Part shown: positions 1,265 through 49,335 of the stretch, in pieces
Position numbering within the stretch: position 1 is the stretch's first letter
Layout: each line of letters opens with the position of its first letter
The notes under the pieces: model-generated
What the model was told of the DNA's origin: nothing
The model's database searches: none
The model's input: only the letters and a program-made list of their open reading frames with translations
DNA from: an uncultured Spartobacteria bacterium
GTDB lineage: Bacteria; Verrucomicrobiota; Verrucomicrobiia; Chthoniobacterales; UBA6821
Length of the DNA: 64,000 nt
Direction of reading: 5' to 3'
Assembly: GCA_903868795.1 (NCBI GenBank)
Contig: CAIPWR010000108.1
Coordinates: forward strand, 5,589-69,588
Position numbers and translations under genes: made by a program

Positions 1265-1312
1265 TAATTCATGAATTTACATGAACAATCTTGCGAGATC
1301 TCTTGATCGCAT

Positions 1313-3089: not shown

Positions 3090-4319
3090 ATGAATAACCC
3101 TACAGCTAGTGCTGCGGCTTTTTTTCTCCAGCTTTCCTTGATATTAGCTGCATGCGGGGCCTGCCGTGCGGTCATGCGAAGGATTGGTCAGTCCCCTGTG
3201 ATTGGAGAGATGATTGCCGGTGTTCTCCTGGGCCCATCGCTTTTTGGTATCATTGCCCCAGATCTCTTTCAGGCCGTTTTTTCTGCAGCATCTCGTCCTG
3301 TGTTGTTTGCAGTGGCTCAGCTTGGGCTCTCTCTCTACATGTTTGTAGTAGGCTTAGAATTCCGAACAGATGTCTTTCGCGCAAATCTGAGAACTGCGGC
3401 GCTAGTTTCAGGAGCAGGTATAATCGCACCTTTTATCTTCGCAGGCTTCATAGCATTTTGGCTGGAGCAAAAGGGGGGGTACTTTACGCCGCATGTCTCC
3501 CTAGCTATGGCTGTACTTTTTATCGGCGCTGCTATGTCAATTACGGCATTCCCCATGCTTGCGAGGATTATTCGTGAAAATGGATTGAAGGGCACAACCG
3601 CAGGAACGGTTGCCCTTGCTGCTGGCAGCTTTGATGATGTTGTTGCCTGGATGCTCCTTGCGACTGTGTTGGGGTGTGTTTCTGGAAATCTAATGCTCGT
3701 TGTAGCGGCTCTGGGTGGTGGCCTGCTCTATACATTATTTTGCTTAAAGTTAATTAGCCCTGTCCTTCACCACTACTTCAGAGATCAGAAAAACGATTCA
3801 GCGCTGCTTGGGGTACTGATGCTTCTTTTGGGTTTATGTTCCTGGTTTACTGACTTGATCGGTCTCTATTCTGTATTTGGAGCATTCATTCTAGGTCTCG
3901 CTGTGCCAAGAGGAGGGGCAGCAGAGAAAACCGCAGAGCGTATTAGTCCTGTTACCACGGCGCTACTGCTACCGTTCTTCTTTACCTATTCAGGATTGAA
4001 CACTCGTTTTTCGCTGCTGAACTCTCCCTCGCTATGGCTGATATGCTTGTGCCTAGTCCTGGCAGCAGTAGCCGCAAAACTCGGTGCCTGCTATGGAGCC
4101 GCTCGCTTTTGTGGAAAGACTCATTCCGATGCTCTCACTATTGCGTCACTGATGAATGCGCGCGGGCTTATGGAACTTATTCTTTTGAATATAGGACTTC
4201 AGGCTGGGCTGATCACTCCAACACTTTTCACCATGCTTGTCCTGATGGCTGTTGTGACTACTTTGATGGCAGCACCCGGATTTAATGCTGCGAGGAGACT
4301 CTCAGCCAGTAACTACTGA
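3090..4319 (+). CDS. cation:proton antiporter (CPA/Kef-type Na+/H+ exchanger family)
   Basis: 409 aa and polytopic, with many hydrophobic segments. N-terminal GQSPVIGEMIAGVLLGPS is typical of the CPA family. Confidence 0.75.
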   Translation: MNNPTASAAAFFLQLSLILAACGACRAVMRRIGQSPVIGEMIAGVLLGPSLFGIIAPDLFQAVFSAASRPVLFAVAQLGLSLYMFVVGLEFRTDVFRANLRTAALVSGAGIIAPFIFAGFIAFWLEQKGGYFTPHVSLAMAVLFIGAAMSITAFPMLARIIRENGLKGTTAGTVALAAGSFDDVVAWMLLATVLGCVSGNLMLVVAALGGGLLYTLFCLKLISPVLHHYFRDQKNDSALLGVLMLLLGLCSWFTDLIGLYSVFGAFILGLAVPRGGAAEKTAERISPVTTALLLPFFFTYSGLNTRFSLLNSPSLWLICLCLVLAAVAAKLGACYGAARFCGKTHSDALTIASLMNARGLMELILLNIGLQAGLITPTLFTMLVLMAVVTTLMAAPGFNAARRLSASNY

Positions 4320-19835: not shown

Positions 19836-21110
19836 TTATACCTGTGCCACTGGTAGTTGCTTCCAATTGGTCGTGTAGTGCGGGGAATGCCTCTCTGATC
19901 TCATCTTCCAGCCCTTGACTGAGCCTTCAGTTCCTTGGGATGCACGGGTGATTACAGGATTCTTGGGATCACCCATGCGGCGGTTGATCTCATCCACGAT
20001 CTTGTCCACATCGATCCGGGCCTTGGGCTGATCAAATAGGCCGGGCTGGTACTCATCCTCGCTCACCAGATTTACAAGCTGCACTCCAGTTTTCTTGTAG
20101 CGGTAGCCGGGCCGGTAGATCTGTTGGAGGAGATCTCGGGCCACAGTCATGAGTTCCGCTGAAGAATGAGTTGGTCGATCCAGCGTGATGGCAATCCCAC
20201 GGGAATACTGGGGCTCATCCCTCATGAAGCGGTTGGTCTGGAGGAAGACCTCTATTCGGGTAGCAAGCAGACCAAAGCGACGGACTTTTTCACTGGCGCG
20301 GGCCACATGATTAGCAAGGGCCTCTTCCAGCTCCTCTAGGAGCTCTACAGGACTTCCAAAGGACCTGCTGGCCATGACTCCCTTCCGGTCTGGAGGCATC
20401 TCTTCCAGCTCTAGGCAGGAGATTCCGTTCAGCTCACGCAGGAGACGCTCCCCGATCACTCCCATGCTCTTCCTGATGGCTGCGGGATCAGCTTGTTTGA
20501 ACTCTAGGGCTGTCTTGACACCCATACCCCTGAGCCGTTGCGCGAGGTTTTTACCAACGCCCCAAAGGTCGCCTGTTTCCATCCCTGTCAGAATCCCATC
20601 AGGATCCCAGTAGCTCGCGAGATCGAAGACCCCGCCAGTGAGATCCTTGTTCTTCTTGGCATGGCGGTTGGAGAGCTTGGCAAGGAGCTTGGTTGAGCCG
20701 ATGCCGATACAGACGGGAATGCCGGTCCACTGAAGCACCTTGGCCCTTAGTACTCGGGCCTGCTCCTCCGTGAATCCCTCTGGAACCTGAAGGAAGGCCT
20801 CATCAATGGAGTAGACCTCGATGGCTGGCACCTCCTCCCGGAGGATCGACATCACTCTGGCACTCATGTCGCCGTAGAGGGTGTAGTTCGAGCTGAAGAC
20901 CTGAACCCCATGCTTTCGGATCACTTCCTGCTGTTCGTGGAGTGGTGCGCCCATGGGAATACCAAGAGCCTTGGCCTCTTCGCTCCGTGAGATGATGCAC
21001 CCGTCATTGTTGGAAAGCACTACGACCGGCTTGTCCTTCAGGGCAGGGTTAAAGACCCTCTCGCAGGAGCAGAAGAAATTGTTGCAGTCGACCAGAGCGA
21101 GGCGGTTCAT
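19836..21110 (-). CDS. umuC: Y-family DNA polymerase V catalytic subunit UmuC
   Basis: MNRLALVDCNNFFCSCERVFNP and VVVLSNNDGC motifs. Start placed at the ATG at 21110. Confidence 0.9.
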   Translation of the reverse strand: MNRLALVDCNNFFCSCERVFNPALKDKPVVVLSNNDGCIISRSEEAKALGIPMGAPLHEQQEVIRKHGVQVFSSNYTLYGDMSARVMSILREEVPAIEVYSIDEAFLQVPEGFTEEQARVLRAKVLQWTGIPVCIGIGSTKLLAKLSNRHAKKNKDLTGGVFDLASYWDPDGILTGMETGDLWGVGKNLAQRLRGMGVKTALEFKQADPAAIRKSMGVIGERLLRELNGISCLELEEMPPDRKGVMASRSFGSPVELLEELEEALANHVARASEKVRRFGLLATRIEVFLQTNRFMRDEPQYSRGIAITLDRPTHSSAELMTVARDLLQQIYRPGYRYKKTGVQLVNLVSEDEYQPGLFDQPKARIDVDKIVDEINRRMGDPKNPVITRASQGTEGSVKGWKMRSERHSPHYTTNWKQLPVAQV

Positions 21111-21126
21111 GAGCTTAATCAAGCAA

Positions 21127-21570
21127 CTAGGACAAGGAAGCGGACTGCTCGCGGAGTAACTTGTCGGCAATTGGGGCAATAGCGGCCAAGTGCGTTCTCA
21201 CTTCAAAGTAGCCACTCTGAATCTCAATCTCCGTCAGAAAACCTACGGATCTTAGAGCATCTAGATACTTCGCCTTTGTAATGGTGATGGCTGCAAAGCG
21301 TTCAGAAACATTATTCCAGTCCCTTTCAGCTCCGCCAAAGTAAGGGGATCCTGCTCTCGTTTCCATCGTCATTGCCAGATTTCCGAGAGAAGCATTATCT
21401 CCACCTTGGTTGAATGTTCGCTCAGTCATGGACTGAATCAAATCGAGAGCGCTCTCTAGCTCCACCCGATCTTGCTGGGGTAGATTTATGGTCATTGAAG
21501 CAATATTGCCCCACTGGAGTGGGTGTCTTAGATCCCAGCATAGATATTCAAAGTAGGTTCCTGACTGCAT
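21127..21570 (-). CDS. hypothetical protein inserted between umuD and umuC
   Basis: 147-aa ORF that fills the umuD-umuC gap with 3-nt and 16-nt spacers. No recognisable motif. Confidence 0.5.
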   Translation of the reverse strand: MQSGTYFEYLCWDLRHPLQWGNIASMTINLPQQDRVELESALDLIQSMTERTFNQGGDNASLGNLAMTMETRAGSPYFGGAERDWNNVSERFAAITITKAKYLDALRSVGFLTEIEIQSGYFEVRTHLAAIAPIADKLLREQSASLS

Positions 21571-21573
21571 AGC

Positions 21574-22002
21574 TTATCTCGCTTGATGGATGATGAAGGT
21601 GACGGCTCCCCAGATAGTGAGCTCCTGATTCTCACCCACCTCAATGGGTGAGAAGGAATCATTGGCTGCTTCTAGGAAGATCCTGCCATTCAGCTTGCGG
21701 AATCGCTTTACGGTGAATTCTCCGTCTATCATGGCCACCACGATCTGACGGTCAGCTGGGCTGACTGACTTGTCCACGATCAGGGTATCGCCAGTGTGGA
21801 TCCCCGCATCGCGCATGGACTCCCCCTTCACCCTAACGAGGAAGGTCGCGGCGGGGTTACGGATCAGTTCCTCATTGAGGTCGATCCCGCGCTCCAGATG
21901 GTCATCAGCGGGCGACGGAAAACCGGCTTCCACCGATGCTGAGACTAGGGGAAGTCGGATGCTGGTGCGTTTTTCTAAGGGAATAGGTGCGGAGAGAGAC
22001 AT
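21574..22002 (-). CDS. umuD: UmuD / LexA-like S24 peptidase
   Basis: VEAGFPSPA (Ala-Gly cleavage site), the GESM serine motif and a TVKRF lysine region. Confidence 0.85.
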   Translation of the reverse strand: MSLSAPIPLEKRTSIRLPLVSASVEAGFPSPADDHLERGIDLNEELIRNPAATFLVRVKGESMRDAGIHTGDTLIVDKSVSPADRQIVVAMIDGEFTVKRFRKLNGRIFLEAANDSFSPIEVGENQELTIWGAVTFIIHQAR

Positions 22003-22009
22003 GCGATTT

Positions 22010-22903
22010 TCAGGGCATTCTCTCACTGGAGATCTTGTTGGCAAGTTGCCTCCCCAGAACAGTGTTCATGTACTTCGCATCAGGGATGATTCCCACCCTT
22101 CCTAGATCCAATCGGTCGGCATCCCAGCAGGTGCCGATCGTTGGGTTGGCATTGTGAGTGGTCTCCGTGTGCCAGGTGCAGGCAAACTCCAGAAGTTCAA
22201 ATTGCTCGTCGGTGATCTGAAAATAAGTGCCTCGAAGCTCATGGGCATAAGCCGCACCTCTTCTGCCATGATCTGGGTCTGAGAATTCGTTCTCCCGCCT
22301 GCTGTCATGGAAGAGGGCAAAGAGTCGCACTACGACGGCATCAGCGCCGGAGCTTGCGGCTAGCATTAGTCCGTTCTGCTCGACCCTTTTCCAGTGATCC
22401 GGGCCATGGTCGGAATGCTCGTCCAATGGAAACTGACTGGTGACAATCCGCCAGAGTTTCTCAAAGTCGATTCCTTGGTCAGAAGATTCAATCTTTTCCA
22501 GATTTTTGGATTCTTCATCGGGAAGGATTCTCTTTTCCCAAGCCTCGATCCTGATCCTCTCACCGGAGAGGCATCCGATCACCGAGAGGATTCCGTCTGT
22601 CACGCTGAAGATGGCGTTCTGACCGTGCTTTCTTCCCATCGTGAGAGCCTCCTCATCGGTCAATCCGGCCACTCCCCAGCCTTCCTCGCGATGCGTGAGA
22701 TCCGGAGAACATCCCGTGATTCGGAAGCAGCGAGAGCCAGCAAGATTCAGTTCTTTTCTGAGTTCCTCATCAGCTTTGGCATTGAGTTCGGCTCCGAGGA
22801 TGATGCCGGGGTTATACGCCGTGATGATGTGGAAATTCCGAGGCCACCCACCGGATGGAGGAGAGGCTTGAAAGACTGTCTCGAGATATTCTGGATGAAT
22901 CAT
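22010..22903 (-). CDS. DUF3293-like N-terminal domain fused to an HD-type phosphohydrolase-like domain
   Basis: The N-terminus has IITAYNPG...EGWGVAG...GQNAIF. The C-terminus has HWKRV...LFALFHDSRR...DPDHG. The ATG at 22903 overlaps the upstream stop (ATGA). Confidence 0.55.
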   Translation of the reverse strand: MIHPEYLETVFQASPPSGGWPRNFHIITAYNPGIILGAELNAKADEELRKELNLAGSRCFRITGCSPDLTHREEGWGVAGLTDEEALTMGRKHGQNAIFSVTDGILSVIGCLSGERIRIEAWEKRILPDEESKNLEKIESSDQGIDFEKLWRIVTSQFPLDEHSDHGPDHWKRVEQNGLMLAASSGADAVVVRLFALFHDSRRENEFSDPDHGRRGAAYAHELRGTYFQITDEQFELLEFACTWHTETTHNANPTIGTCWDADRLDLGRVGIIPDAKYMNTVLGRQLANKISSERMP

Positions 22904-25737: not shown

Positions 25738-25950
25738 ATGAGTCACAAACCCACCCTGGCAGTAAGGATCACCAAGAATCCGTTCCATCATCTTTGGAAC
25801 AACAACGGCACCTGGTGGTGCCACTACACCGAGCACCTACAGGATTACACCAAGTGGCGTGTCCGTCGCAGCCTCCACACGAGCGATTCATCGCTCGCCC
25901 GCGTTCTCCGGGATTCCCTCCTCTGCGAGGCGGCCCATTACGAAGCCTAG
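25738..25950 (+). CDS. small basic hypothetical protein (70 aa)
   Basis: ATG ORF downstream of the RNA candidate. The segment HLWNNNGTWWCHYT...RVRRSLHTSD loosely recalls N-terminal arm regions of tyrosine integrases. No catalytic domain follows. Confidence 0.35.
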   Translation: MSHKPTLAVRITKNPFHHLWNNNGTWWCHYTEHLQDYTKWRVRRSLHTSDSSLARVLRDSLLCEAAHYEA

Positions 25951-27209: not shown

Positions 27210-27482
27210 CTACCCTCCGGCAATTGCTGGAACGATGGAAATCACGTCGGAGTCTTTGACGGGCGTTTGCTTCTCCTGAAGGAAGCGCACGTCCTCGTCG
27301 TTGAGGAAGATATTCACGAAGCGGCGGATTTCTCCCTGCTCGTCCACAATGCGCTCGGCGAAGCCGGGATAGGTTCTGTTAAGTTCGTTGAGAATGTCAC
27401 CGAGGGAGGAGCCCGTTACGGGAACCTCCTCCTGATTGTCGGTGAGCTTCCTGAGAGGGGCGGGGATGCGGATTGTTGCCAT
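27210..27482 (-). CDS. ThiS/MoaD/CysO-family ubiquitin-fold sulfur-carrier-like protein
   Basis: 90 aa starting MATIRIP. Contains RFVNIFLNDEDVRF and ends in IVPAIAGG followed by the stop (C-terminal Gly-Gly). Confidence 0.8.
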   Translation of the reverse strand: MATIRIPAPLRKLTDNQEEVPVTGSSLGDILNELNRTYPGFAERIVDEQGEIRRFVNIFLNDEDVRFLQEKQTPVKDSDVISIVPAIAGG

Positions 27483-28125: not shown

Positions 28126-29316
28126 GTGAGAGGAATGCCCAAGCGTTCCTCTCCCAAATCCTCCTCTTCCCCGAAGCAGAAAAAATCTTCCGTCGTTGAA
28201 AAGACGGTGCCTGTGATGCAGAAAGCTGCAGAAGCTACCAAGGCGAAGGCCAAGCTATCGGCCGAGAAACCATCCTCACAGGGAATCATTCAGGGAAACA
28301 CATCCCGTGATCATATCTATCGGATCTTCGTGATCTTTTCTGAGGTTCAGAATGAGCGTTATCCCACACCAAAAAAGCTGGCAGCTCTTTGCGACGTCAA
28401 AGACAGGACAATCCTTCGTGACATCGATCAGATCAATGGACTTTTGAGCAATTTTGAGACCACTCATGAAAAAGTCGGAAGGGTCGACACCAACGCAATA
28501 GAGTTCGATCACCAGAAAGGTGGGTACCGCCTCAGGCATAAACTCAACCACTTCCCGATCATCCGTGTTGAGGACCCTGATCTGTTAACTCTTCATTTTC
28601 TTCGCCAGTGCCTGGAGCCCTACAAGGACACGGGTATCGGAAAGAGCATGATCGAGTCCTTTAACCGCACCTTCGGTATCCTAACAGGAACGACAGACTG
28701 GAAGCAGTGGGAGCGGATCGTCCACTTCCGGTTTGAGGGTAAGCCCGAGGTTGCCAAGGAGGATGTGAAGCTCTTTGACCTCCTGCACAAGGCTATCAGG
28801 GAAAACCTTCAGGTATCGCTCGACTACAAGCCTGCCAAGGATCCCAAGAGCACACGCATCATCGAGCCTCACTTCCTCTTCATGCGTAACGGTTCCTGGT
28901 ATCTCTATGCCTCAAAGGCCGGCAAGCCCGAGAAGCGTACCCTGAAGTTCGCCCGCATCAGTAATGCCAAACTCACCGGCGAGAAGTTCACCCACGTCCG
29001 GATGGATCCCAAGGACTGCTTTGAATACAGCTTCGGAGTCGTCCCCTCCCAATCCAAGGCTCTCAAGAATCCTGTCGTATTGGAGTTCACCAAGGAGTCC
29101 GCCCAGCGAGTTTCCGAGACACTCTGGCATCCCGAACAAAAAGTGAAGGATCTCCCTGGAGGCGGAGTGCGCCTGGAGCTTCCCTTCGACGAACCGACCT
29201 ACCTGGAACTGAAGCCATGGATCCTCAGCTGGGGTGCCTCAGCCAGAATCATCGGACCGAGAGAACTCAAGGATAAAGTGGCAGAGGATGTGCGGGCGAT
29301 GGCTGCTGGGATTTGA
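28126..29316 (+). CDS. WYL-domain transcriptional regulator
   Basis: Lys/Ser-rich N-terminal tail, an HTH-like YPTPKKLAALCDVKDRTILRDIDQI segment, and the NGSWYLYA WYL signature, followed by a C-terminal extension. Confidence 0.8.
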   Translation: MRGMPKRSSPKSSSSPKQKKSSVVEKTVPVMQKAAEATKAKAKLSAEKPSSQGIIQGNTSRDHIYRIFVIFSEVQNERYPTPKKLAALCDVKDRTILRDIDQINGLLSNFETTHEKVGRVDTNAIEFDHQKGGYRLRHKLNHFPIIRVEDPDLLTLHFLRQCLEPYKDTGIGKSMIESFNRTFGILTGTTDWKQWERIVHFRFEGKPEVAKEDVKLFDLLHKAIRENLQVSLDYKPAKDPKSTRIIEPHFLFMRNGSWYLYASKAGKPEKRTLKFARISNAKLTGEKFTHVRMDPKDCFEYSFGVVPSQSKALKNPVVLEFTKESAQRVSETLWHPEQKVKDLPGGGVRLELPFDEPTYLELKPWILSWGASARIIGPRELKDKVAEDVRAMAAGI

Positions 29317-29370
29317 GCCAAAACACCAGCCCTATTAATCCGAGCATATACCGCCTCCCTGTCCTCTTCC

Positions 29371-30042
29371 TCAAAGCTTACAGAAGCCGCTGTCTCCTTT
29401 CGAATTCTGGAGAAAGCCCTTGATCTGAAAGTCGGAACCAGCGGCGGAGGGTAGATCTTTCGAACTCGCTATGGATGTCCCAATTATCAAGACACGATCG
29501 GATATTTTTCGATTTTCTTCCCAAATGTGTTTACGGATAAAAAGTTGTATCGACTTCTTTTGATAGAGACCCAGGGCATTTTGAGTGAAGGAATTACTTT
29601 CATCGTAATACTCTAAGCCGTAGATGAAATCCAAAACAATCACACCGATTGCGCTCGGGTTTTCAAAATAGCGGATCCAGTCCCCGTAGTCGATGAAGCC
29701 TGGGCCGATTACTAAAACTGCAAATGTAGTAGACGGGTCTTCCTTCAAGAGGTCATTGAATTCACCTTCAGGGCGATTATTTGCTCTCTGACCTATGTCA
29801 ACCAAGTTGATGTAGTTACGATTTTGCCCAAATCTTTCAGGAGCATCCGAAAGTCCCAACTCACACGCCATTTCAGAACAAAACTCTTTTATAAAAAAAG
29901 ACTTACCAGCGCCAGTATCTCCCATCACCAAAACCGAGTGAGGACCCTTTCCCTCCATTTGTGCTTTGAAAGCACTCCGAAGTGTTGTTTTGAATTCATT
30001 AGGAGTCCAGGAGGGAAATCCGTTGTTTATTGGCTTTGTGTT
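29371..30042 (-). CDS. P-loop NTPase of unknown family
   Basis: Walker A motif VMGDTGAGKSFF. Start taken at MNTKPINN (30042). Low-GC gene. Confidence 0.6.
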   Translation of the reverse strand, partial: NTKPINNGFPSWTPNEFKTTLRSAFKAQMEGKGPHSVLVMGDTGAGKSFFIKEFCSEMACELGLSDAPERFGQNRNYINLVDIGQRANNRPEGEFNDLLKEDPSTTFAVLVIGPGFIDYGDWIRYFENPSAIGVIVLDFIYGLEYYDESNSFTQNALGLYQKKSIQLFIRKHIWEENRKISDRVLIIGTSIASSKDLPSAAGSDFQIKGFLQNSKGDSGFCKL

Positions 30043-30065
30043 CATTGCTAATGAATGAGTTGAAA

Positions 30066-30272
30066 TCACGCATATGATCCATCCCATTCTCTCTTTTTTA
30101 GAGTAGGATGGGTTGGGCATTTGTAGCATTTGTGCAAGCCCTTGGCCTCTCGACATTTTAGGCAAAATCGATGGTCTTCAGGACAATACCAGTATTTGCC
30201 ACCAAGGAAATCATCGCAAACATCACATTTTCTAAAAGCCTCCTCAATTGTTAAAAACCCAAGCGGATTCAT
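30066..30272 (-). CDS. 68-aa zinc-binding protein with C3HC4 (RING-HC-like) cysteine/histidine spacing
   Basis: C16-x2-C19-x10-C30-x3-H34-x2-C37-x2-C40-x8-C49-x2-C52, read directly from the translation. Confidence 0.55.
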   Translation of the reverse strand: MNPLGFLTIEEAFRKCDVCDDFLGGKYWYCPEDHRFCLKCREAKGLHKCYKCPTHPTLKKREWDGSYA

Positions 30273-30306
30273 GATTGTTTGGTTTTTAGATTTGGTTTTG
30301 TTTTTA

Positions 30307-31107
30307 TTACGAATTAAATAATCCTATCAGTTTCTTTAGTTCTCGATCCAGCACCGAACCTGCCGTGTAGTCGGCTGGGGAGATCAGGTTGACGCGGCCT
30401 TCTTCGAGTAGCAGCTTGGCCTTCTTTTTTGCGGCTGATCCGGGCTTGTGGACGGCGACGGAGTAGCCGCCCATGTTTTTCACGAGGCTCATGCAGGGGA
30501 CATCGGTCTCCCCGTCACCGATAAAGATCATCCTCTCGAAGGGAATGGGGCGTTTTTCCATTGGCTTGTAGGCGTTGATCCCGGCTGTGTCCCAGACATC
30601 CAGGCATCCCTTGTTGATGCGGAAGAGGAACTGCGTCTTCGTCGTGTAGTTCACGGCCATGGAGGGCCACTTTGCGATGCCGTTCTGGTCATACAGGAAC
30701 GACGAGGCATAGATGGTCTTGAACTCTTTCCCGATTTTGCACCCCTCGATCATCTCCTTGATTCCTGAGGAGATAATGTAGTGCTCGAGCTTCACCCCCT
30801 TGCTCTTGGCAAAGCGGTTCATCCTGCCGAACCAAGTCTCCACGCCCGGGAAGAAATCAATATCCCTTCCATGGTTCTGGAAGGACTTGCGTGTTAGCTC
30901 CACCCCGTTCTGCATCCCGGCCTCGCGGACCATTAAAAACATATAACAAAGGATCGGGTCCGCGTTCTGGGTCTTTGCCAGATCCAGAGCCATCTTCCAG
31001 AACTGCTTTGGCTTCACCCCAAGCTGCGGAATATACCCGTACTCCTGCATGTAGCGGGGACAGAGAGTCCCGTCGAAGTCGTAGCAGAGGGCAACAGTGC
31101 CTTTCAT
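30307..31107 (-). CDS. HAD-superfamily hydrolase
   Basis: CYDFDGTL (motif I) and IGDGETDVPCM (motif IV). Confidence 0.8.
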   Translation of the reverse strand: MKGTVALCYDFDGTLCPRYMQEYGYIPQLGVKPKQFWKMALDLAKTQNADPILCYMFLMVREAGMQNGVELTRKSFQNHGRDIDFFPGVETWFGRMNRFAKSKGVKLEHYIISSGIKEMIEGCKIGKEFKTIYASSFLYDQNGIAKWPSMAVNYTTKTQFLFRINKGCLDVWDTAGINAYKPMEKRPIPFERMIFIGDGETDVPCMSLVKNMGGYSVAVHKPGSAAKKKAKLLLEEGRVNLISPADYTAGSVLDRELKKLIGLFNS

Positions 31108-31587: not shown

Positions 31588-32403
31588 CTAGGCTGCCTTG
31601 CGTTCCTCCCCTTCGTTTCCCTGCTCGGTTGTGGGCACATCACTTTGAGAGGTCGGAGAGACGGGGGAAATCCCGGCGTCGGGATCCTGAGGCTTTTGAA
31701 GTGGTTGTTCAGGAGCGCTCTGGAGGGCTTCCGATTGGGATAAGGGCTTCTGGGTTCCCTTGCGGTTCGACTTTTTCTTTGTAGGGGCAGGGGTGCTGCC
31801 GCTGTCGACTGATGTAGGAGTTGCTTGGGCTTTTGTTTTTCCAGAGCTCTTCGCTTTGGAGCCGGCATCCTTGGAAACCTTCCTACCTTTTTTGGTAGGT
31901 TCCTCGACATGGGCGGCATGGTAGTCCAGTTCTGCGAGATAGACGGCATCCTCAGGAGTCGTTCCTGCGTAAAGAACCTGCATCAGTGCTGGGTAGTAGC
32001 GGTCAGCTGTTCCAAGGGCGGTTCCAAAAAGGCGACGGATCATCCCATCCTCCAGCTTGCCCTCGGGCATCACATGGGATGCATGGAAGCGAACTTCCCC
32101 ATCCTTCCAGTCCATCTCGAAGTTCCCGACAACGAGACCGTAATTGGCACGGGTGATGAACTCCGCGGCAATGGCACGAAAGGGTTCCTTCACCATCACG
32201 GGGTACTCGATGAAGATCTGAAGAACGTCGCCGGTCTTGTCGAAGTTGAAGCGACACTTCTGCACGGCATTGCCCGAGTTCATGGAGAACCAAATACGGC
32301 GCTCCTCGCGTTTGCAACTGTAGCGGATGCCAACTGCCTCAAAATGGTCGAGCAGGGCTTGGAAGGGATCGCCGTAGATGGGGTTATGGTTTTCGTCGTT
32401 CAT
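31588..32403 (-). CDS. YbjN-like (T3SS-chaperone-fold) protein with disordered Lys-rich/acidic tail (copy 1)
   Basis: FITRANYGLVVGNFEMDWKDGEVRFH and YAGTTPEDAVYLAELD. Paralogous to 41936..42682. Confidence 0.65.
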   Translation of the reverse strand: MNDENHNPIYGDPFQALLDHFEAVGIRYSCKREERRIWFSMNSGNAVQKCRFNFDKTGDVLQIFIEYPVMVKEPFRAIAAEFITRANYGLVVGNFEMDWKDGEVRFHASHVMPEGKLEDGMIRRLFGTALGTADRYYPALMQVLYAGTTPEDAVYLAELDYHAAHVEEPTKKGRKVSKDAGSKAKSSGKTKAQATPTSVDSGSTPAPTKKKSNRKGTQKPLSQSEALQSAPEQPLQKPQDPDAGISPVSPTSQSDVPTTEQGNEGEERKAA

Positions 32404-33392: not shown

Positions 33393-34502
33393 TCAGGCGG
33401 CAAAGCCGAGAATCTTGCTTTCGGAGGAGTTTGTTCCCTCCTGCTCATTGAAAATCTCCGCAAGGGAGTAATCCTCCGGCCCTCCAGGTAGAGAGAGTCC
33501 ATGGTGGGCTGCGAGGCGGCGGGCGTCGGTGCGGGAGAGGCGTCCGAAGTGACGGCGTGCCATGAGGCGTCCGGGTCGAAGCAGGGCGTCGTCGAGATCG
33601 GAAGCGCGACAATTCACCGTCGCGATGATCTGCAGGCGGAGGAAGTCGGCCAACATTCCGTCCGAGTAGTTTAGGACAACCTGCACAAGCGAGCGGTTAT
33701 CATTGGCACGGGCCATGAGTGCCTGCTCGGCATCCTCGATGATCAGCGCGAGTTTTTTGTCCTGATGGAGTTCCCTCTGACGGGCCCAGAATGAGATGAA
33801 GTCACTATCGACCAAGCAGCCGATCTCATGAGGAGCGATATAATAGAAGCAATGAGTCTTCGCGTGCTGGGACACCAGATGCCTTAGGAAGGTCGTCTTC
33901 CCGGTTCCAGGAGGTCCCTCCAGAATCGTCAAGCCAGACGGTTTGTCCTCAAAACGATGCATAAAATCCGCATGCCAGCCGTTGAAATCCTCGCCATAGA
34001 GGAGTGATAATTCCTGCGCATCGGGCACCTTGACACCCTCCAGTGGGACGGTCTCCGTCCCGATACATCCGCAGGAACGTTCAATCAGATAGTAGCATGG
34101 CTTGATAGGCTTAACCAAGGACCACGCCATTTTGTAAAGCCGCCGTGCGAGCTTAGCCGTCGACTTCCAGTCGCGACCATAGGCACGGATGGTCGAGCGA
34201 TAGCAGGTGGCGAACATGCCGCTTCGGGTTCGTAGGATAAGAGCTTGGGCGGTGAAAACTCCCTTGCAGTCCCACTCCGAATCGGTACGCAGGAGTTTCT
34301 TTTCAAGACGCTTGCCGAGGGCCTTGAGATCGTATTTGGGAGGAGTGACCTCGACGCGGTGCAGGGGGCCGCTGCCCAGCTCCTCCATGAGACAAAGCGG
34401 AAGTCCCCCACCCTCCTCCATATAAACGGGAACCATGGTGAGTGGAAAGGTTTGCTGCGGAGCGGGCATCAGTGGCTTCTGGTTGAAATCGAAGGTTTCC
34501 AT
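33393..34502 (-). CDS. BCS1-like classic-clade AAA+ ATPase (paralog 2)
   Basis: Walker A GPPGTGKTTF, Walker B LIIEDAEQAL, and ATVNCRASDLDDALLRPGRL. The C-terminus is KILGFAA. Confidence 0.85.
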   Translation of the reverse strand: METFDFNQKPLMPAPQQTFPLTMVPVYMEEGGGLPLCLMEELGSGPLHRVEVTPPKYDLKALGKRLEKKLLRTDSEWDCKGVFTAQALILRTRSGMFATCYRSTIRAYGRDWKSTAKLARRLYKMAWSLVKPIKPCYYLIERSCGCIGTETVPLEGVKVPDAQELSLLYGEDFNGWHADFMHRFEDKPSGLTILEGPPGTGKTTFLRHLVSQHAKTHCFYYIAPHEIGCLVDSDFISFWARQRELHQDKKLALIIEDAEQALMARANDNRSLVQVVLNYSDGMLADFLRLQIIATVNCRASDLDDALLRPGRLMARRHFGRLSRTDARRLAAHHGLSLPGGPEDYSLAEIFNEQEGTNSSESKILGFAA

Positions 34503-35138: not shown

Positions 35139-36218
35139 TCATGCGGCGAATCCGATGCGGCAGGGTGTAGGTTCCACATCACGGATGGGCTCCGCCGAAA
35201 AGATCTCCGCAAGGGAATAATCAGTGCGCAAAGGGAGCTCCTTCCCGAGCGAACGTGCGAGGCGGTGGCCATCCTGATGGGAAAGGCGACCGAAGGTGCG
35301 TTGGGCGGTCAGGCGACCGGGGCGGAGAAGTGCCTGATCAATATCGGTCGTGGCACAGTTCATGGTCGCGACGATGTGCAACTGGAGGAAATCCGCCAGA
35401 AGGCCATCGGTGACATTCAGGATCGCGGAGACTTCGGAACGATTGTCCATGGCGCGCGGGGCAAGGGCCGCCTCAGCATCCTCCAGAACCATGACGAGCT
35501 TTTTGCCTTCGGCCTCTTGCTTTTGGCCGTTCCAGAAGTCGATGAAATCTGGATTGGAGACGATCCCGACCGTCGAAGGTGGAACGAAGTAGAAGCGGTG
35601 CGAGGTGCGAAGCTCCACCATCAAATGGCGAAGATAGGAGGTCTTTCCGCAGCCTGGAGTCCCGTCAAGGATCGTCAGCCCGTGGGGGCGCTCGGAAAGG
35701 GCCTTGATAAAACCGGTATGCCAATCGAGGAATTCGGAGCCGTAATTGAGCGCCAGCTTCTCCTCGGCGAGACCGAACTCGGCCTTCATCGTGACTGCAA
35801 AGGTGTTGAGATCCCCGCGGCTCACGCGAAGAAGGTGATAGGTGCCGAACTCCGGCGCCTCCTCCTCGTTTGCCACAAGGTAACGTTGCAGGAGACGACC
35901 CAGCAGATGGCATGCACGAAGAGTTGGTCCGTAGACCTTGAGACACCCTTCGTCAAAATGAATGAAGAGCCCGCGATCCGAGCCGAAGATCACATGGAAC
36001 CAATGCTTCTCCTCTCCCATCCCCCCGCTGTCCGAGCGGAGGATGCGTTTGGAGAGATTTTTGGCCATCGAATTGATGTTCCAGCGTGAATCGCGGCAAC
36101 GTAGGCGGAGTCGGTGAAAGTCACGTGTTCCGTAATGTGAGAGAACCGGTTGAGGTGGGTTTTCCCCCGATTCTTCGAAGGCGTAAGAGGTCGAGACGAT
36201 CTGGTTGATGGTATTCAT
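35139..36218 (-). CDS. BCS1-like classic-clade AAA+ ATPase (paralog 1)
   Basis: GTPGCGKTSY, MVLEDAEAAL and ATMNCATTDIDQALLRPGRL. The C-terminus is CRIGFAA. Confidence 0.85.
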   Translation of the reverse strand: MNTINQIVSTSYAFEESGENPPQPVLSHYGTRDFHRLRLRCRDSRWNINSMAKNLSKRILRSDSGGMGEEKHWFHVIFGSDRGLFIHFDEGCLKVYGPTLRACHLLGRLLQRYLVANEEEAPEFGTYHLLRVSRGDLNTFAVTMKAEFGLAEEKLALNYGSEFLDWHTGFIKALSERPHGLTILDGTPGCGKTSYLRHLMVELRTSHRFYFVPPSTVGIVSNPDFIDFWNGQKQEAEGKKLVMVLEDAEAALAPRAMDNRSEVSAILNVTDGLLADFLQLHIVATMNCATTDIDQALLRPGRLTAQRTFGRLSHQDGHRLARSLGKELPLRTDYSLAEIFSAEPIRDVEPTPCRIGFAA

Positions 36219-37462: not shown

Positions 37463-38644
37463 ATGAAAACGCAGAAACCTTCAAACCCTCTTCATCCACT
37501 CACCACGCTCGATCTTAACGCTAACAAGAAAAGTGTTTCTAGAAGCCGTAGCAAGGTCATGATGAACATCGACCTTGCGGATATCGACTCTTGGGGGGCA
37601 GATGCCTGCACTCCTCCTCTTCCTGTCCTTGCCTTTTATGGTGCTGATCCACTTCATCGGTTTGCTTTGCCGCGTGGACGTTTTGATATTGCCCGCCTGA
37701 CGAAACAATTTGCCTCACGAATCGTACGCTCTGACAGTCGTCCCGGAGGAAAATCCGATTCTGAGGATCAGGATGGTTGGAGGAGCGTCCTCTTCCATTT
37801 CAAGGGATTTGGCGCATGGCTGCACTATGAGCACGGCACGATCAGCACCTATGCGGCGACCCGTCGAAAGGCGATGCTCTTGGCTCTGAAGATGGAACGT
37901 TACCATCTCAAGGATAAAGAGACTGGCGGAAGCTTTGAATTGATCTCCCTGGAGAATGGATCGATCGATACCGAGACAGTCACCCTAGGGATGGAAACAA
38001 TCCTTGAAGATCGGATTCTCTCCCTGCATTACGGCGAGGACTTTCCTAAATGGAGTCGCGATTACGAAAGCATAATCACTTCGAAAAAGAGCGGTTTGAG
38101 TATCCTGGATGGGCCTCCCGGCACGGGTAAGAGTTCTTTCATCCGCCACCTGATGGGGAAGTTAAAGAGCTCGCACAGATTCTTTTTTGTTCCCCCGAGC
38201 GTGATCGATGTCGTGAGCAACTCCTCTTTCGTCAGCTTCTGGAGTCGTCAACAGATGAGTCACAAGGGACGCCAGTTCGTTCTTGTGCTGGAGGACTCCG
38301 AAGCTGCATTGATGAAGAGGGCTGCGGACAACCACTCGCTTGTGAGCAGTCTGCTCTCGGTCACCGATGGCCTTCTGGGGGACTTCATGAAGATCCAGGT
38401 AATCTGCACGATCAATTGCAAATACCAGGACATCGATCCTGCTCTTCGTCGTGCGGGACGCTTGGTTGCTCACCGCCACTTCCCTCGACTGAGCTACAGC
38501 AAGGCCTGCTCTCTCGCTGATAAGATCGGTCGTCCCGTTCCGAGCAGGGAGGAATTCTTCGATGGGGACTTCTCCCTCGCCGAGATCTACAACGCCGACG
38601 CCGCTCCCCAGCAGGAGTCGAAAATCATCGGCTTCGCCGCATAA
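37463..38644 (+). CDS. BCS1-like classic-clade AAA+ ATPase (paralog 3)
   Basis: GPPGTGKSSF, LVLEDSEAAL and CTINCKYQDIDPALRRAGRL. The C-terminus is KIIGFAA. Confidence 0.85.
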   Translation: MKTQKPSNPLHPLTTLDLNANKKSVSRSRSKVMMNIDLADIDSWGADACTPPLPVLAFYGADPLHRFALPRGRFDIARLTKQFASRIVRSDSRPGGKSDSEDQDGWRSVLFHFKGFGAWLHYEHGTISTYAATRRKAMLLALKMERYHLKDKETGGSFELISLENGSIDTETVTLGMETILEDRILSLHYGEDFPKWSRDYESIITSKKSGLSILDGPPGTGKSSFIRHLMGKLKSSHRFFFVPPSVIDVVSNSSFVSFWSRQQMSHKGRQFVLVLEDSEAALMKRAADNHSLVSSLLSVTDGLLGDFMKIQVICTINCKYQDIDPALRRAGRLVAHRHFPRLSYSKACSLADKIGRPVPSREEFFDGDFSLAEIYNADAAPQQESKIIGFAA

Positions 38645-39181: not shown

Positions 39182-40078
39182 ATGAGTTCATTACCTCCAC
39201 CCATGCAGACAGAGTTGTCATTCCGTGGCGAAGAAGATGATTTCCTTCGCGAGTGGCTTCGTGAACGTCGCAAGACGCGTCTGCAGCGTCTAGGTGAATG
39301 GCTGGAGATGTCGGTCCTTCTTCCAGTTATTCAGGGTCTGCTAGCAGTAATCAGGGTAGCCGAGCCACTCCGAGTTGTCCCGGCACCCGTATGGACGATT
39401 GGCTCCATGCTGATCTCGATCGCAGTCTACTCTTCCAGGATGGGGTGGAAACTGGCACTTGGCTTCATCACCCTCTTGATGATCCACGAGAGCGGGCATC
39501 TGCTTGCGGCACGCTATTACGGGGCGCGCATGAGCGTTCCGATCTTCATCCCCTACATCGGGGCGATTATTGACATGAAGGAGCCGATGCGGAATGCCTG
39601 GGAGGAGGCCGTCTTCGGCATCTCGGGGCCGCTTTTGGGGACCCTTGGAGCCTGCCTCTGCTGGATCACGGCAGGCATCACCGGCAGCTTCTACTTCGCC
39701 GAGCTGGCACTCTTTGGTTTTTTCCTCAATCTCTTCAACCTCATTCCACTTGGCTTTCTTGACGGAGGACACGTCGCAGTCGTGCTCACTCGTTGGCTCT
39801 GGATTCCCGGCTACCTCATGATGGGCGCCTTCGCATGGTATGTGCATTCGCCTGTCGTGATTATCTCGCTTGTCGTCATGCTTCCAATGGTCCTCTCCCT
39901 CTTCCGGAAGAAACCACATAAAGACAATCTCTATGACCGCGTGCGGCTCGGGAAGCGTTTCGCCATGGGTGCCATCTACCTGGCCCTTGTCTCTTTCCTC
40001 GCCTGCTCCATGTCCTGGATTTTCATCAAGGACATCTACCCCGGCCTCAAGCAAGGCAAGAGCCTTATCAAGCTTTAA
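39182..40078 (+). CDS. M50 (site-2-protease-type) membrane metalloprotease (copy 1)
   Basis: HESGHLL (HExxH) and NLFNLIPLGFLDGGH (the NxxPxxxLDG motif). Polytopic. Confidence 0.75.
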   Translation: MSSLPPPMQTELSFRGEEDDFLREWLRERRKTRLQRLGEWLEMSVLLPVIQGLLAVIRVAEPLRVVPAPVWTIGSMLISIAVYSSRMGWKLALGFITLLMIHESGHLLAARYYGARMSVPIFIPYIGAIIDMKEPMRNAWEEAVFGISGPLLGTLGACLCWITAGITGSFYFAELALFGFFLNLFNLIPLGFLDGGHVAVVLTRWLWIPGYLMMGAFAWYVHSPVVIISLVVMLPMVLSLFRKKPHKDNLYDRVRLGKRFAMGAIYLALVSFLACSMSWIFIKDIYPGLKQGKSLIKL

Positions 40079-41935: not shown

Positions 41936-42682
41936 ATGTCCGACTCCAATACCCCGTTTGAACCCGCAACCGGCCCCGACTTCGGAGGGCCCTTCAAGAC
42001 CGTGTGCGATCACTTCGAGGAACACATGAAATCCGTGAACATCGATTGGGAGAAAAAAACCCTCCGTTTCCAAGTTTATGGCGACCACGCGAACATGGAT
42101 GTCCGGATTCGTGTCTGCGAGGAGGATCATGTCCTCCAGTTCTTCATCACGCTACCCTTCCGGGTGGCGAACGAGAAGATGCGACCCATCGTGGCCGATT
42201 TTGTGGCCAGGGCAAATTGGGGTCTCGTCGTCGGATCGCTGGAATTTGACATGAGGGACGGGGAACTCGTCTACCACATGACGCAGTTGCTTGAGAACCA
42301 CACGATCGGTGATCAACTCATAGGACGTCTGTTTCGCACAGGCATGTCGACGTTCGACAGGTACATCCCCGGCATCTTTCAGATCATTTACGGAGGGAAT
42401 ACCCCGGAAGACGCCGTCTACCTTTGCGAATTGGACATGCATTCCTCCCAAGATGCCGACACCCAGTCCTCATCCGTCGCGCCGAAGAAGAAAAAGCCGG
42501 CACCGCGTCGAAAGAAATCCACCAGCAAGGACGCCGGTAAGGAAAGCGGACAGGAGAGTCATTCCTCTGATTCCGGAAACCATGCAGCTCTCGAATCCCC
42601 AGCACCTCAGGATCCCATGGGTAACAATCAGGCAGAGGATCGTGGTACATTTTCTGCAGAGGCCGAGGAGGATGAATTTTAG
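41936..42682 (+). CDS. YbjN-like protein with Lys-rich/acidic tail (copy 2)
   Basis: FVARANWGLVVGSLEFDMRDGELVYH and YGGNTPEDAVYLCELD. Paralog of 31588..32403. Confidence 0.65.
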   Translation: MSDSNTPFEPATGPDFGGPFKTVCDHFEEHMKSVNIDWEKKTLRFQVYGDHANMDVRIRVCEEDHVLQFFITLPFRVANEKMRPIVADFVARANWGLVVGSLEFDMRDGELVYHMTQLLENHTIGDQLIGRLFRTGMSTFDRYIPGIFQIIYGGNTPEDAVYLCELDMHSSQDADTQSSSVAPKKKKPAPRRKKSTSKDAGKESGQESHSSDSGNHAALESPAPQDPMGNNQAEDRGTFSAEAEEDEF

Positions 42683-47603: not shown

Positions 47604-48472
47604 ATAATCGTTTCGCCATCGCGGGTGACGAGCCCGTGTCCTTTGCCCCGCCTGCGCCTCCTGAGATTTGCTGTGAGAGGGATTGGAGCGGTGCGCCGCC
47701 GATCCGTCTCCAACCCTCCGCGCACTACTCATCCGCGCAGACGGATCGAATCATCAACTACTGGCGACCGCGGATTGCGAATCTTGTGGAGAGCGCCATC
47801 GGAATGGTCGGTGATTTTCGTCAATATCAAGAAGGTGGAAAACTCGGTATCGACTGGCAGACCAATGGGAATCCTTATCCCTGTCTGCCGTTTCTGCGTG
47901 TGGTTGGCCCCCCCGAATCGGGAAGAGACATGAGGCACTTCACCGACGAGTCCTGCCACGTCCTGCTTCAGACCTCTACGAAAGAGGAGGCTCAAGAAGC
48001 CTATTGGTTTAAGGGAAGGATTCCCGACGCTCGTGATATCATGGAATGGATAGAACGATGGTCCGTCTGGCTTCCAAACGAGAGCAGTCAGTTTGAATTC
48101 TGGAGCGTTTTCTTGCCAAGCGGGACGTTCGAAAGGTTCTGCCATTATGTGCATTCTCTCGTCCACGACTACTATCTGGAAATCCTTGAGCGCCACACGC
48201 TTTGGGAAGAAAGGATGGAGTGCGAGGGCTGGCCTCCCCCGGCAGAGGATTCACTGCCGACCGCCAAGAATCTCCCCACGTCTATCCGCTACTGGCACCC
48301 AAGACTCCTCCTTGACGAGGAGGAATTCCGCCTCACGGTGGAGAATGCAGCCGAAGTCTTCGCCTTTACTATGGACATGCTGCAACGCTACAGGCATTCG
48401 CTCGACCAGGAGGCCAAAGATGCGCTGGAAATGGCCGCTTACGAGGCGTATCTGCTTGGAAATCCCAGATGA
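47600..48472 (+). CDS. hypothetical protein
   Basis: Start placed at MNNRFAIAG (47600). Its stop overlaps the M50 copy 2 start (ATGA at 48469). Confidence 0.5.
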   Translation: MNNRFAIAGDEPVSFAPPAPPEICCERDWSGAPPIRLQPSAHYSSAQTDRIINYWRPRIANLVESAIGMVGDFRQYQEGGKLGIDWQTNGNPYPCLPFLRVVGPPESGRDMRHFTDESCHVLLQTSTKEEAQEAYWFKGRIPDARDIMEWIERWSVWLPNESSQFEFWSVFLPSGTFERFCHYVHSLVHDYYLEILERHTLWEERMECEGWPPPAEDSLPTAKNLPTSIRYWHPRLLLDEEEFRLTVENAAEVFAFTMDMLQRYRHSLDQEAKDALEMAAYEAYLLGNPR

Positions 48473-49335
48473 ACACTGCGACCACTTCCTTTGCTTTTCG
48501 TAGGCGCCGGCGAACGCAATCCTACATGCACCCTCCTCTCAGATTTGGCGGGATTGCAGGGATTATCATGACTCTTTCCCGCGTCCCAGGACCTTTCTGG
48601 TCGGCGGCCAGCCTTCTTATGTCCCTCGCTTATTATGGTTGCCGGCTGGGGTGGGGCCTTGCCGCTGGATTTTTGGTTCTCCTTTCCGTTCACGAAACAG
48701 GGCATCTGTTGGCGGCTCGCCGTTATCGGCTTAGGACCTCCTGGCCGCTGTTTGTCCCGGGTCTGGGCGCGCTGATCGACATTCAGGAGGCGCCGGGAGA
48801 CCGTTGGCAGAACGCCGTCATCGGTGTTTCGGGACCGGTCTTCGGGACCATCGGAACATTGGTCTGCTTGTTCCTGGCTCATGTCTCGGGTTGCCGTCTC
48901 CTGTATGAAGCCGCTTTTGCGGGGGCCGTCATGAATACCTTTAATCTGATCCCTGTGGGGCCAATGGACGGTGGCCGTGTGGCCGAGCTTTTCTCGCGAT
49001 GGCTCTGGATTCCCGGATACCTGATGCTTGCGGTGATCGTCTGGTATTTACGGGCTCCGGCGGCGGTCCTTCTGCTCCTGCTTATGTTGCCGATCATCGT
49101 CACGCTCTTCCGCAGGAAGAAGTCCTTGAAAAGCGACTCTCCCGACTTGCGGGAACAGTCGCGGGTCTCGCTCGGCAAGCGCCTCGCCATGGGCTTCCTC
49201 TACATCGGGCTCGTCATCATTCTGGCCTCATCGATGTGCTGGATCTTTGTCAAAGACATCGCCCCGAGGCTCCATGCTGGGAAAAGCCTTACTCATTCAA
49301 TTCCCGGCAACAAAACCGCCGGAGTGGACCACTGA
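48469..49335 (+). CDS. M50 (site-2-protease-type) membrane metalloprotease (copy 2)
   Basis: HETGHLL and NTFNLIPVGPMDGGR. The C-terminal KRLAMGFLYIGLV..WIFVKDIAP parallels copy 1. Confidence 0.75.
   Translation: MNTATTSFAFRRRRRTQSYMHPPLRFGGIAGIIMTLSRVPGPFWSAASLLMSLAYYGCRLGWGLAAGFLVLLSVHETGHLLAARRYRLRTSWPLFVPGLGALIDIQEAPGDRWQNAVIGVSGPVFGTIGTLVCLFLAHVSGCRLLYEAAFAGAVMNTFNLIPVGPMDGGRVAELFSRWLWIPGYLMLAVIVWYLRAPAAVLLLLLMLPIIVTLFRRKKSLKSDSPDLREQSRVSLGKRLAMGFLYIGLVIILASSMCWIFVKDIAPRLHAGKSLTHSIPGNKTAGVDH

Follow-up and report, generated by a model that had tools for sequence, protein, structure and literature searches.

The 64,000-nucleotide (nt) stretch analysed here, referred to as the window, belongs to an uncultured Spartobacteria bacterium (contig CAIPWR010000108.1) and contains, at positions 29371-30272, a compact cassette of two genes that are poor in guanine and cytosine (GC). 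One of them codes for a cysteine-rich protein of 68 residues, which we call ZnF68, and the other for a protein with a Walker A motif, hereafter the nucleoside triphosphatase (NTPase). The cassette looks like a strain-specific passenger, not like a bacterial ubiquitin system. The explanation that we favour, with a rough probability of 0.55, is that a foreign fragment was captured, in which ZnF68 would be a two-zinc and probably RING-like module without E3 function, the AAA+ remnant encoded by the second gene may still bind nucleotide at most, and the pair would be decaying or marginally accessory.

According to this explanation, an AT-rich stretch of about 1 kb, gained by horizontal transfer, would have landed at a hotspot where the gene of a WYL regulator and that of a HAD-family hydrolase (PDC-S34) meet tail to tail, inside a defence/conflict island whose host would be a freshwater, Chthoniobacterales-like member of the Verrucomicrobiota. 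ZnF68 would chelate two zinc ions, most likely through the cross-brace of a RING-like binuclear treble clef (pairing C16/C19/C37/C40 on the one hand and C30/H34/C49/C52 on the other), and would serve as a module for contacts with proteins or nucleic acids rather than as a ubiquitin ligase. The pair is not a conserved system and would probably be a decaying or, at best, accessory fragment, and its expression, if any, would plausibly depend on read-through from the HAD gene located 34 nt upstream. The features concerned are the following:

29317..30324, no strand assigned: insertion of some 1,008 nt, low in GC and strain-specific, absent at syntenic junctions (boundary alignments)
30066..30272, minus strand: ZnF68, orphan protein of 68 residues with C3HC4 (SIAH-like) spacing (open reading frame, spacing, Pfam, shuffles)
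30046..30065, minus strand: 20-nt spacer between the ZnF68 stop and the NTPase start (read from the sequence)
29371..30045, minus strand: AAA+ core protein of 224 residues (HMMER search, alignments A2 and A6, AlphaFold2 model, Foldseek)
30307..31107, minus strand: HAD-family hydrolase, PADLOC candidate PDC-S34 (PADLOC PDLC05002, Pfam HAD)
28126..29316, plus strand: WYL-WCX transcriptional regulator, convergent with the cassette (Pfam WYL/WCX, PADLOC WYL)

Insertion at the junction of the WYL and HAD genes

When the WYL-WCX regulator (Pfam WYL 9.5e-14 and WCX 1.9e-15; PADLOC WYL 4.1e-29) was used as a probe, syntenic loci were recovered from Verrucomicrobiota/Chthoniobacterales metagenome-assembled genomes (L014-L016) and from JGI metagenome contigs (L026-L031). 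Overall, the HAD proteins of the relatives are 89-92% identical to that of the window, and their WYL proteins 80-89%. In three of these loci (L014, L015 and L026, with 82-88% identity in WYL and 91-92% in HAD), both genes lie tail to tail with their stop codons about 28 nt apart, and no counterpart of ZnF68 or of the NTPase is found at the junction. Boundary alignments place the foreign block between 29317 and about 30324, that is, some 1,008 nt with 43% GC, and the final five codons of the HAD gene in the window, together with its stop codon, are part of this block (...LKKLI-GLFNS-stop). The HAD gene, whose product has a Pfam HAD match and also matches PADLOC PDLC05002 (PDC-S34) with E = 2.4e-116, closes the conserved portion of the gene run that lies upstream on the same strand.

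Other relatives carry different cargo at this junction. For instance, L016 has an unrelated open reading frame (ORF) of 103 residues with a CxxC...CxxC pattern (3741-4052, minus strand, 41% GC), L029 has one of 143 residues that resembles a PD-(D/E)xK nuclease (1117-1548, plus strand, 39% GC), and L011 has a full-length member of the NTPase family (6-590, plus strand, 42% GC). Additionally, zinc-ribbon-SAM and zinc-ribbon-caspase-like genes are found downstream of WYL in L027 (3474-6600, plus strand). The WYL/HAD (PDC-S34) junction is a hotspot for variable low-GC cargo. Since the block of about 1 kb is absent from L014, L015 and L026 and different low-GC cargo is present in other relatives, the separate acquisition that the original prediction had proposed for the two genes is strongly supported. 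The derivation of the window NTPase from a gene of the L011 type by deletion was considered and rejected, as no nucleotide homology was found outside the WYL gene.

The base composition of the block points in the same direction, although the contrast is smaller than the 40 versus 65% GC initially estimated from three counts of 60 nt. Two of these counts (23/60 and 24/60) were reproduced exactly, and the third, 39/60, became 37/60 upon recounting. Taking whole genes, ZnF68 has 42.0% GC, with 36% at third codon positions (GC3), and the NTPase 43.4% (GC3 45%), versus 53.9% (GC3 75%) in the HAD gene; six other nearby genes have 52.8-56.9% GC and a GC3 of 60-73%. The two-gene stretch as a whole has 42.8% GC versus 53-56% in its flanks, the mean of the window being 51.2%, and only 3.9% of 902-nt windows reach a GC content as low as that of the cassette. 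Further low-GC patches occur in the window, for instance at 59-61 kb (36-40%).

No convincing flanking direct or inverted repeats or target-site duplications were observed around the insert, and no mobility gene was found with it. No enrichment of promoter-like or terminator-like sites relative to shuffled sequences was seen, and the window contains no Rfam families.

The locus resembles the defence-island hotspots that lie beside WYL regulators of the BrxR/CapW type, as here a WYL-WCX regulator and a PDC-S34 HAD flank strain-variable low-GC cargo. By contrast, the regulator is convergent with the cargo in the window, instead of lying upstream of it, and neither gene of the cassette matches a known defence family: in PADLOC-DB v2, ZnF68 has no match and the NTPase has matches at the P-loop level only (E of at least 0.003). 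Genes of WYL regulators co-localise with defence systems of various kinds (PMC9122601), and PDC systems have been put forward as candidates that are as yet untested (bioRxiv 10.1101/2024.01.29.577857). The WYL/HAD (PDC-S34) junction of freshwater Verrucomicrobia is a useful place in which to seek new defence or anti-defence genes.

ZnF68 as a gene and as a zinc finger

ZnF68 (ORF 30066-30272, minus strand; sequence MNPLGFLTIEEAFRKCDVCDDFLGGKYWYCPEDHRFCLKCREAKGLHKCYKCPTHPTLKKREWDGSYA) displays the spacing C-x2-C-x10-C-x3-H-x2-C-x2-C-x8-C-x2-C, in which the eight metal-ligand candidates are C16, C19, C30, H34, C37, C40, C49 and C52. Of its 7 Cys and 3 His, two histidines (H46 and H55) are left over, and C52-P-T-H55 is a possible alternative for the fourth ligand pair. 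Its stop codon is followed after 20 nt, or after the 23 nt originally noted if the stop codon is counted, by the start of the NTPase gene (ORF 29371-30045, minus strand, 224 residues, Walker A GDTGAGKS). On the other side, 34 nt separate ZnF68 from the HAD gene, which is on the same strand. Both frames are uninterrupted in three assemblies.

Judged from its sequence, ZnF68 is a genuine gene and not a chance ORF. The RING-HC regular expression, C-x2-C-x9-39-C-x1-3-H-x2-3-C-x2-C-x4-48-C-x2-C, has a single match in the six frames of the window, its sole matches across 37 fetched loci are the same element in L001 and L002, and a Markov simulation of 24 Mb of DNA, with about 286,000 random ORF segments, did not produce it once, so that the pattern is not a product of chance. 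It could still be argued that the 68-residue ORF is not a gene and that the true one is an NTPase reading of 261-264 residues that overlaps it in another frame. In fact, the ENA gene call P0002 (261 residues; L001:7351-8136) stretches the NTPase over ZnF68 in a different frame (window 29371-30165, minus strand) and leaves out the small ORF, which is why ZnF68 is missing from the protein set of that assembly; moreover, no Shine-Dalgarno-like motif can be read in the sequence before the start codon of either gene. We give this possibility almost no credence. The 37-residue extension has no counterpart in the NTPase homologs, whose N-termini align to residue 2 of the 224-residue form, and consequently the shorter start is right and the frame of ZnF68 is left free. 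Additionally, the independent gene call of the Logan assembly includes the 68-residue ORF, and the eight-ligand pattern, as mentioned, never arose in random sequence.

ZnF68 is an orphan. A word-seeded search of 5.8 billion clusters returned the same element or chance matches only, and no homolog was detected by tblastn against phages, by tblastn against plasmids or by a pattern scan of IMG/VR; the best phage match, the zinc ribbon of a serine recombinase, was treated as chance. No NCBIfam or PHROGs family was matched at E <= 0.01, nor any PADLOC family at E <= 0.1. Among Pfam families, the three best matches are all RING families: Sina_RING, with 20.7 bits versus a cut-off of 29.3 (E = 4.6e-4) over all 35 profile positions; zf-C3HC4_IRF-2BP1_2, with 14.2 bits versus 26 over the first 32 of 72 positions only; and zf-C3HC4_2, with 12.8 bits versus 27 over 39 of 40 positions. 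The RING reading first made of this protein thus holds for the ligand spacing, which agrees ligand by ligand with C3HC4, but not at the level of a profile match at the curated threshold. The profiles of Prok-RING_1/2/4, prokaryotic RING fingers that were reportedly described by Burroughs, Iyer and Aravind in 2011, did not match even at E <= 10, a result that, given the speed filters of HMMER, mainly excludes matches stronger than about E = 0.1.

As a control, all non-ligand residues of ZnF68 were shuffled 19 times and Pfam was scanned again. The native Sina_RING score lies above those of 19/19 shuffles (maximum 14.0 bits), which implies that the non-ligand residues add about 7-11 bits, and this excess is no more than suggestive of a RING (at about p <= 0.05). 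The core H-R-F-C-L-K-C of ZnF68 aligns with H-N-F-C-L-K-C of the TRIM31 RING, and a C-x3-H second pair and the H-x-F-C-x2-C motif are hallmarks of RING fingers that are atypical of zinc-ribbon knuckles. The closest likeness is to the SIAH/Sina RING-HC fingers (PF21362, PF13923), as the order of the ligands is identical and the spacing is nearly so (the SIAH RING being C-x2-C-x10-C-x3-H-x2-C-x2-C-x6-C-x2-C), and the H-x-F-C-x2-C core and the Val of the C-x-V-C knuckle are shared. However, ZnF68 is a stand-alone bacterial protein of 68 residues without the E2-contact hydrophobic residue after ligand C6, the linchpin or any nearby ubiquitin machinery. The usual E2 surface of a RING consists of hydrophobic residues in the first knuckle and after C6 or in the helix, a Pro after C7 and a basic linchpin after C8. 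In ZnF68, V18 is present, C6 is followed by Arg, the Pro comes after C52 and not after C49, and, this Pro being the residue that follows the last ligand, there is no basic linchpin.

On these motif grounds, we lean slightly towards a cross-braced rather than a sequential arrangement, both zinc binding and the topology being predictions from the ligand pattern. The opposite arrangement, with sequential sites formed by C16/C19/C30/H34 and then by C37/C40/C49/C52, or a tandem finger of LIM-like or zinc-ribbon type, is in our estimate somewhat short of even odds. In that case, ZnF68 would be a small nucleic-acid- or protein-binding protein; as this concerns the fold only, it is compatible with a captured cargo fragment. 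A search of the Protein Data Bank (PDB) with the core retrieves Stc1 (tandem LIM-like, E = 0.062) and the FHL2 LIM domain (E = 9.4) beside the TRIM31 RING (E = 1.2), the spacing C-x2-C-x17-C-x2-C-x8-C-x2-C is the same as in the aligned FHL2 segment, the Pfam double zinc ribbon (DZR) is weakly matched (E = 1.2), and the RING profile scores stay under threshold. ZnF68 also shares with LIM and tandem LIM-like fingers (FHL2, Schizosaccharomyces pombe Stc1) the four Cys/His pairs and a two-residue spacer between the middle pairs. In contrast, the three top Pfam matches and the second-pair and core motifs are those of RING families, and ZnF68 departs from the LIM pattern C-x2-C-x16-23-H-x2-C-x2-C-x2-C-x16-21-C-x2-[CHD]. 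There is no Cys at position 43, which is Ala, so the signature H-x2-C-x2-C-x2-C fails; the loops are of 14 and 8 residues when read against this pattern (10 and 8 in the ligand spacing), shorter than those of LIM (16-23); and no Pfam LIM match exists, the FHL2 alignment being at noise level.

Other attempts at assigning the fold were set aside. A single-sequence AlphaFold2 model of ZnF68 reached a predicted local distance difference test score (pLDDT) of 47.3 and a predicted template modelling score (pTM) of 0.25, Foldseek on this model gave only unrelated folds with E > 3, and both were discarded. PDB matches to BaDTF3/YD-repeat proteins (E of about 0.04-0.1) were due to a C-terminal 'LKKREWDGS' string, leave the cysteines unaligned and were attributed to chance. 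An HNH nuclease, in which two CxxC pairs surround a DH motif, was rejected as well: ZnF68 lacks Asn and a C-x2-C-H motif, and Pfam gives it no HNH match.

The AAA+ protein and its relatives

The second gene had been described as coding for an NTPase of unknown family, a description that can now be corrected to a C-terminally truncated and catalytically degenerate AAA+ domain. A word-seeded search with this protein recovered the same gene only, but an exhaustive phmmer search of 1.84 billion representatives gave nine matches. Among them, P0003 (361 residues) is 45% identical to the NTPase over residues 2-212, and three proteins of about 600 residues each (P0004, P0005 and P0008) have E values from 1e-9 to 2e-6. 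P0004 and P0008 match the PHROG family phrog_1297 'ATPase' (E of about 1e-34), the three proteins have weak matches to Pfam AAA_16 and AAA_5, only some of them above the cut-off, and tblastn with P0004 leads to phage genes annotated as 'MoxR-like ATPase' and 'N4 gp24-like'. The NTPase itself matches no PHROG, and Pfam P-loop families only below threshold; its link to MoxR-like/AAA_5 proteins (phrog_1297) is therefore transitive, as it runs through P0004, P0005 and P0008. Two further matches, P0006 and P0010 (a fish NACHT-repeat protein and a repeat protein), were rejected as P-loop-only or spurious, and scans with alignment A3 found no relatives in JGI metagenomes, GTDB genomes or IMG/VR.

An AlphaFold2 model built from alignment A6 (pLDDT 71.6, pTM 0.75) has ORC/Cdc6, TRIP13/PCH-2, RuvB and Rubisco activase as top Foldseek matches in the PDB, and its top matches in BFVD are phage AAA and dynein-related AAA proteins, with probabilities of about 0.99 and TM-scores of 0.3-0.5. 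The NTPase is an AAA+ core from a rare family whose distant kin are the phage MoxR-like/N4 gp24-like ATPases. With P0004, P0005 and P0008 it has in common the N-terminal helix, the core strands and the region of Walker A, but identity is just 30-39% over partial stretches, and the Walker B Glu, the arginine finger and the C-terminal domains are lacking.

Alignments A2 and A6 indicate that Walker A is intact. In A2, Walker B reads VIVLDF versus LFLDEL in the phage-like proteins, without the catalytic Glu, and AAGSDF stands in place of their arginine finger, GLKRRF; the sensor-1 Asn is replaced by Thr/Ser, and there is an insertion after Walker B relative to the phage-like proteins. The protein terminates 12 residues past the conserved F-x-x-K-G-x-L strand, where all five close relatives (P0003, P0009, P0011, P0012 and P0013) continue for approximately 100-150 residues with a C-terminal domain of about 140 residues, and no remnant of this domain was found elsewhere in the window. 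The losses of the Walker B Glu and of the arginine finger are common to the whole P0003/P0009 clade, whereas the truncation is specific to the window copy. Given the lack of the Glu, the arginine finger and the C-terminal domain, ring assembly and hydrolysis are unlikely, and the ATPase activity would appear from the sequence to have been lost. The proteins of the P0003/P0009 clade may be nucleotide-binding switches.

The original prediction called for a survey of the co-occurrence of homologs of both genes, and the pairing proved to be unique to this window. The loci read for the NTPase relatives (L003, L004-L009, L010 and L012, corresponding to P0003, P0009 on six contigs, P0011 and P0012) contain no Cys-rich ORF upstream of the gene, and the ZnF68-NTPase pair is seen in a single lineage only. 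The copy in L002 (Logan) has eight differences from window 29530-30125, all of them transversions, and six of the seven coding changes are nonsynonymous, including Y50N in ZnF68; these differences are likely read or assembly errors, not natural variation.

What precedes the NTPase-family gene in L004-L010 is an ORF of 247-248 residues (e.g., L005:1095-1841, plus strand, and L010:2795-3538, plus strand) that resembles an AAA-like paralog without Walker A (...GAVGLLLLSEFTRAD...ILVVATGYIPA...), which suggests that the family normally operates as a pair of degenerate AAA-like proteins. The window also contains an ORF of 70 residues (25738-25950, plus strand; ...HLWNNNGTWWCHYTEH...) that is 55-63% identical to 73-residue ORFs of L004-L008 and L010; it has no Pfam match and presumably resembles an integrase arm-type N-terminal domain. 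L005-L007 carry an AAA protein homologous to three PF00004 paralogs of the window, the near-full-length L005 copy, which adjoins the NTPase-family gene, being 37-41% identical, and every member of the NTPase family is lower in GC than its flanks. This AAA+ family travels in islands of this type.

Ubiquitin context and competing explanations

The protein with a C-terminal Gly-Gly that had been pointed out 2.6 kb away (27210-27482, minus strand) is indeed of ubiquitin fold, as it belongs to the ThiS family (Pfam E = 5.7e-16) and ends in AIAGG. It passes the NCBIfam moaD_arch cut-off (51.6 bits versus 49.5) and falls just under that of SAMP1 (58.9 versus 60). Its gene lies beyond the WYL gene and outside the insert; it is located beside WYL in L031 and was not detected in the flanks of L014-L016, and the approximately 640 nt upstream of it hold no convincing ORF and no Rfam match. 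When the ORFs of 130 residues or more between about 18.5 and 50 kb were scanned with Pfam, no E1 (ThiF), E2, JAB or vWA domain was found, in agreement with the initial remark that no E1 or E2 was visible, and no MoaE gene was detected among these ORFs.

These observations bear on the proposal that ZnF68 is a bona fide prokaryotic RING E3 working with a ubiquitin-like protein (Ubl), such as the nearby MoaD/SAMP1-like protein, and with the ATPase, in the manner of the RING-containing MoxR-vWA conflict systems. The RING-HC spacing and the proximity of a Gly-Gly protein speak in its favour, and bacterial operons have been described that combine a MoxR AAA+ protein and a RING-type E3 with an E1, an E2-Ubl fusion, JAB, vWA and an effector (PMC7159879). 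The window shares with these ternary systems (Kaur et al. 2020, PMC7159879) a small RING-like domain beside a MoxR-related AAA+ protein within a conflict/defence island. However, none of their other components was found among the ORFs scanned here, so that an E3 role is unlikely; additionally, their MoxR proteins keep the arginine finger, which the window protein lacks along with its other catalytic residues and its C-terminal domain, the Prok-RING profiles do not match ZnF68, several of the usual E2-contact residues are missing when its sequence is read against established RING-E2 knowledge, the Gly-Gly gene is outside the insert, and the loci of the NTPase relatives have no zinc-finger ORF. 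We regard a ubiquitin ligase as very unlikely, and the suggested link to a ubiquitin-like system is not borne out.

It may also be considered that the two genes form a functional accessory module of the defence island, in which ZnF68 would recruit a target as a sensor or adaptor dependent on zinc and the AAA+ protein would be a nucleotide-bound switch instead of a motor, with expression linked to that of the HAD/PDC-S34 operon and perhaps also to the WYL regulator. The tight same-strand gaps (34 nt from HAD to ZnF68, 20 nt from ZnF68 to the NTPase), the uninterrupted frames and the intact Walker A would agree with such a module, as would the recurrence of the AAA+ family in related islands, where it lies beside counterparts of the 70-residue ORF and of the PF00004 AAA proteins seen in the window, the presence in L016 of a different small CxxC protein in the same post-HAD position, and the fact that the hotspot adjoins a regulator of a class that co-localises with defence systems (PMC9122601). 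Nevertheless, the pair exists in one lineage only, no ATPase relative has a zinc-finger partner, the C-terminal domain kept by every relative is missing here, neither protein meaningfully matches a PADLOC or PHROG family, and no sign of purifying selection was found. A module of this kind is unlikely. It is quite improbable that ZnF68 is a minimal cross-brace RING without ubiquitin machinery that forms, together with a non-hydrolysing AAA+ switch, a new two-gene conflict module downstream of the PDC-S34 HAD. If that were true, ZnF68 would be among the smallest stand-alone prokaryotic RINGs, with a function other than E3.

Several points weigh against the capture of a decaying fragment with a RING-like finger, or at least against parts of this explanation. 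ZnF68 was searched for with a word-seeded search and tblastn, so remote homologs may have been missed. All its RING profile scores lie under the curated cut-offs, and 3 of the 19 shuffles reach E values of 3.5e-4 to 4.6e-3 against EGF_laminin and Zn_ribbon_10, which are unrelated Cys-rich families (the maximum being 21.1 bits, against EGF_laminin); as shuffled sequences match unrelated families equally well, an E value of about 5e-4 means little. The PDB sequence matches are at noise level and mix the TRIM31 RING with the LIM-like Stc1 and FHL2. In addition, the P0003/P0009 clade persists in several genomes despite the loss of the Glu and of the arginine finger, which indicates that its members may work without hydrolysis, and the window NTPase, with its intact Walker A, might retain a function. 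Finally, no signal of selection was found, the sole variant copy, that of L002, being the one that looks like a sequencing error.

Foreign capture remains our preferred explanation. The cassette has been seen in a single lineage and encodes an ATPase that is both shortened and degenerate, so that it probably carries little biological weight. RING-like fingers of prokaryotes, AAA+ proteins with degenerate motifs and hotspots in defence islands are already known, and ZnF68 adds a new orphan to kinds that already exist. If its cross-brace were true, it would nonetheless be a minimal stand-alone bacterial example outside a ubiquitin context, with a bearing on how binuclear treble-clef fingers were employed before ubiquitin signalling or apart from it.

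The surroundings of the cassette contain repeated modules of AAA, YbjN and M50 proteins interspersed with proteins without a family match: three paralogous PF00004 AAA proteins (33393-34502, minus strand; 35139-36218, minus strand; 37463-38644, plus strand), two YbjN-domain proteins (31588-32403, minus strand; 41936-42682, plus strand) and two M50 peptidases (39182-40078 and 48469-49335, both on the plus strand). Together, these repeated modules may make up a multi-gene system not yet described. At its left edge, the variable island has a UmuD-like S24 peptidase (21574-22044) and a UmuC/ImpB polymerase (19836-21179), both on the minus strand, and further to the left, at 7.8-17.4 kb, there are halogenase/FAD and MMPL genes.

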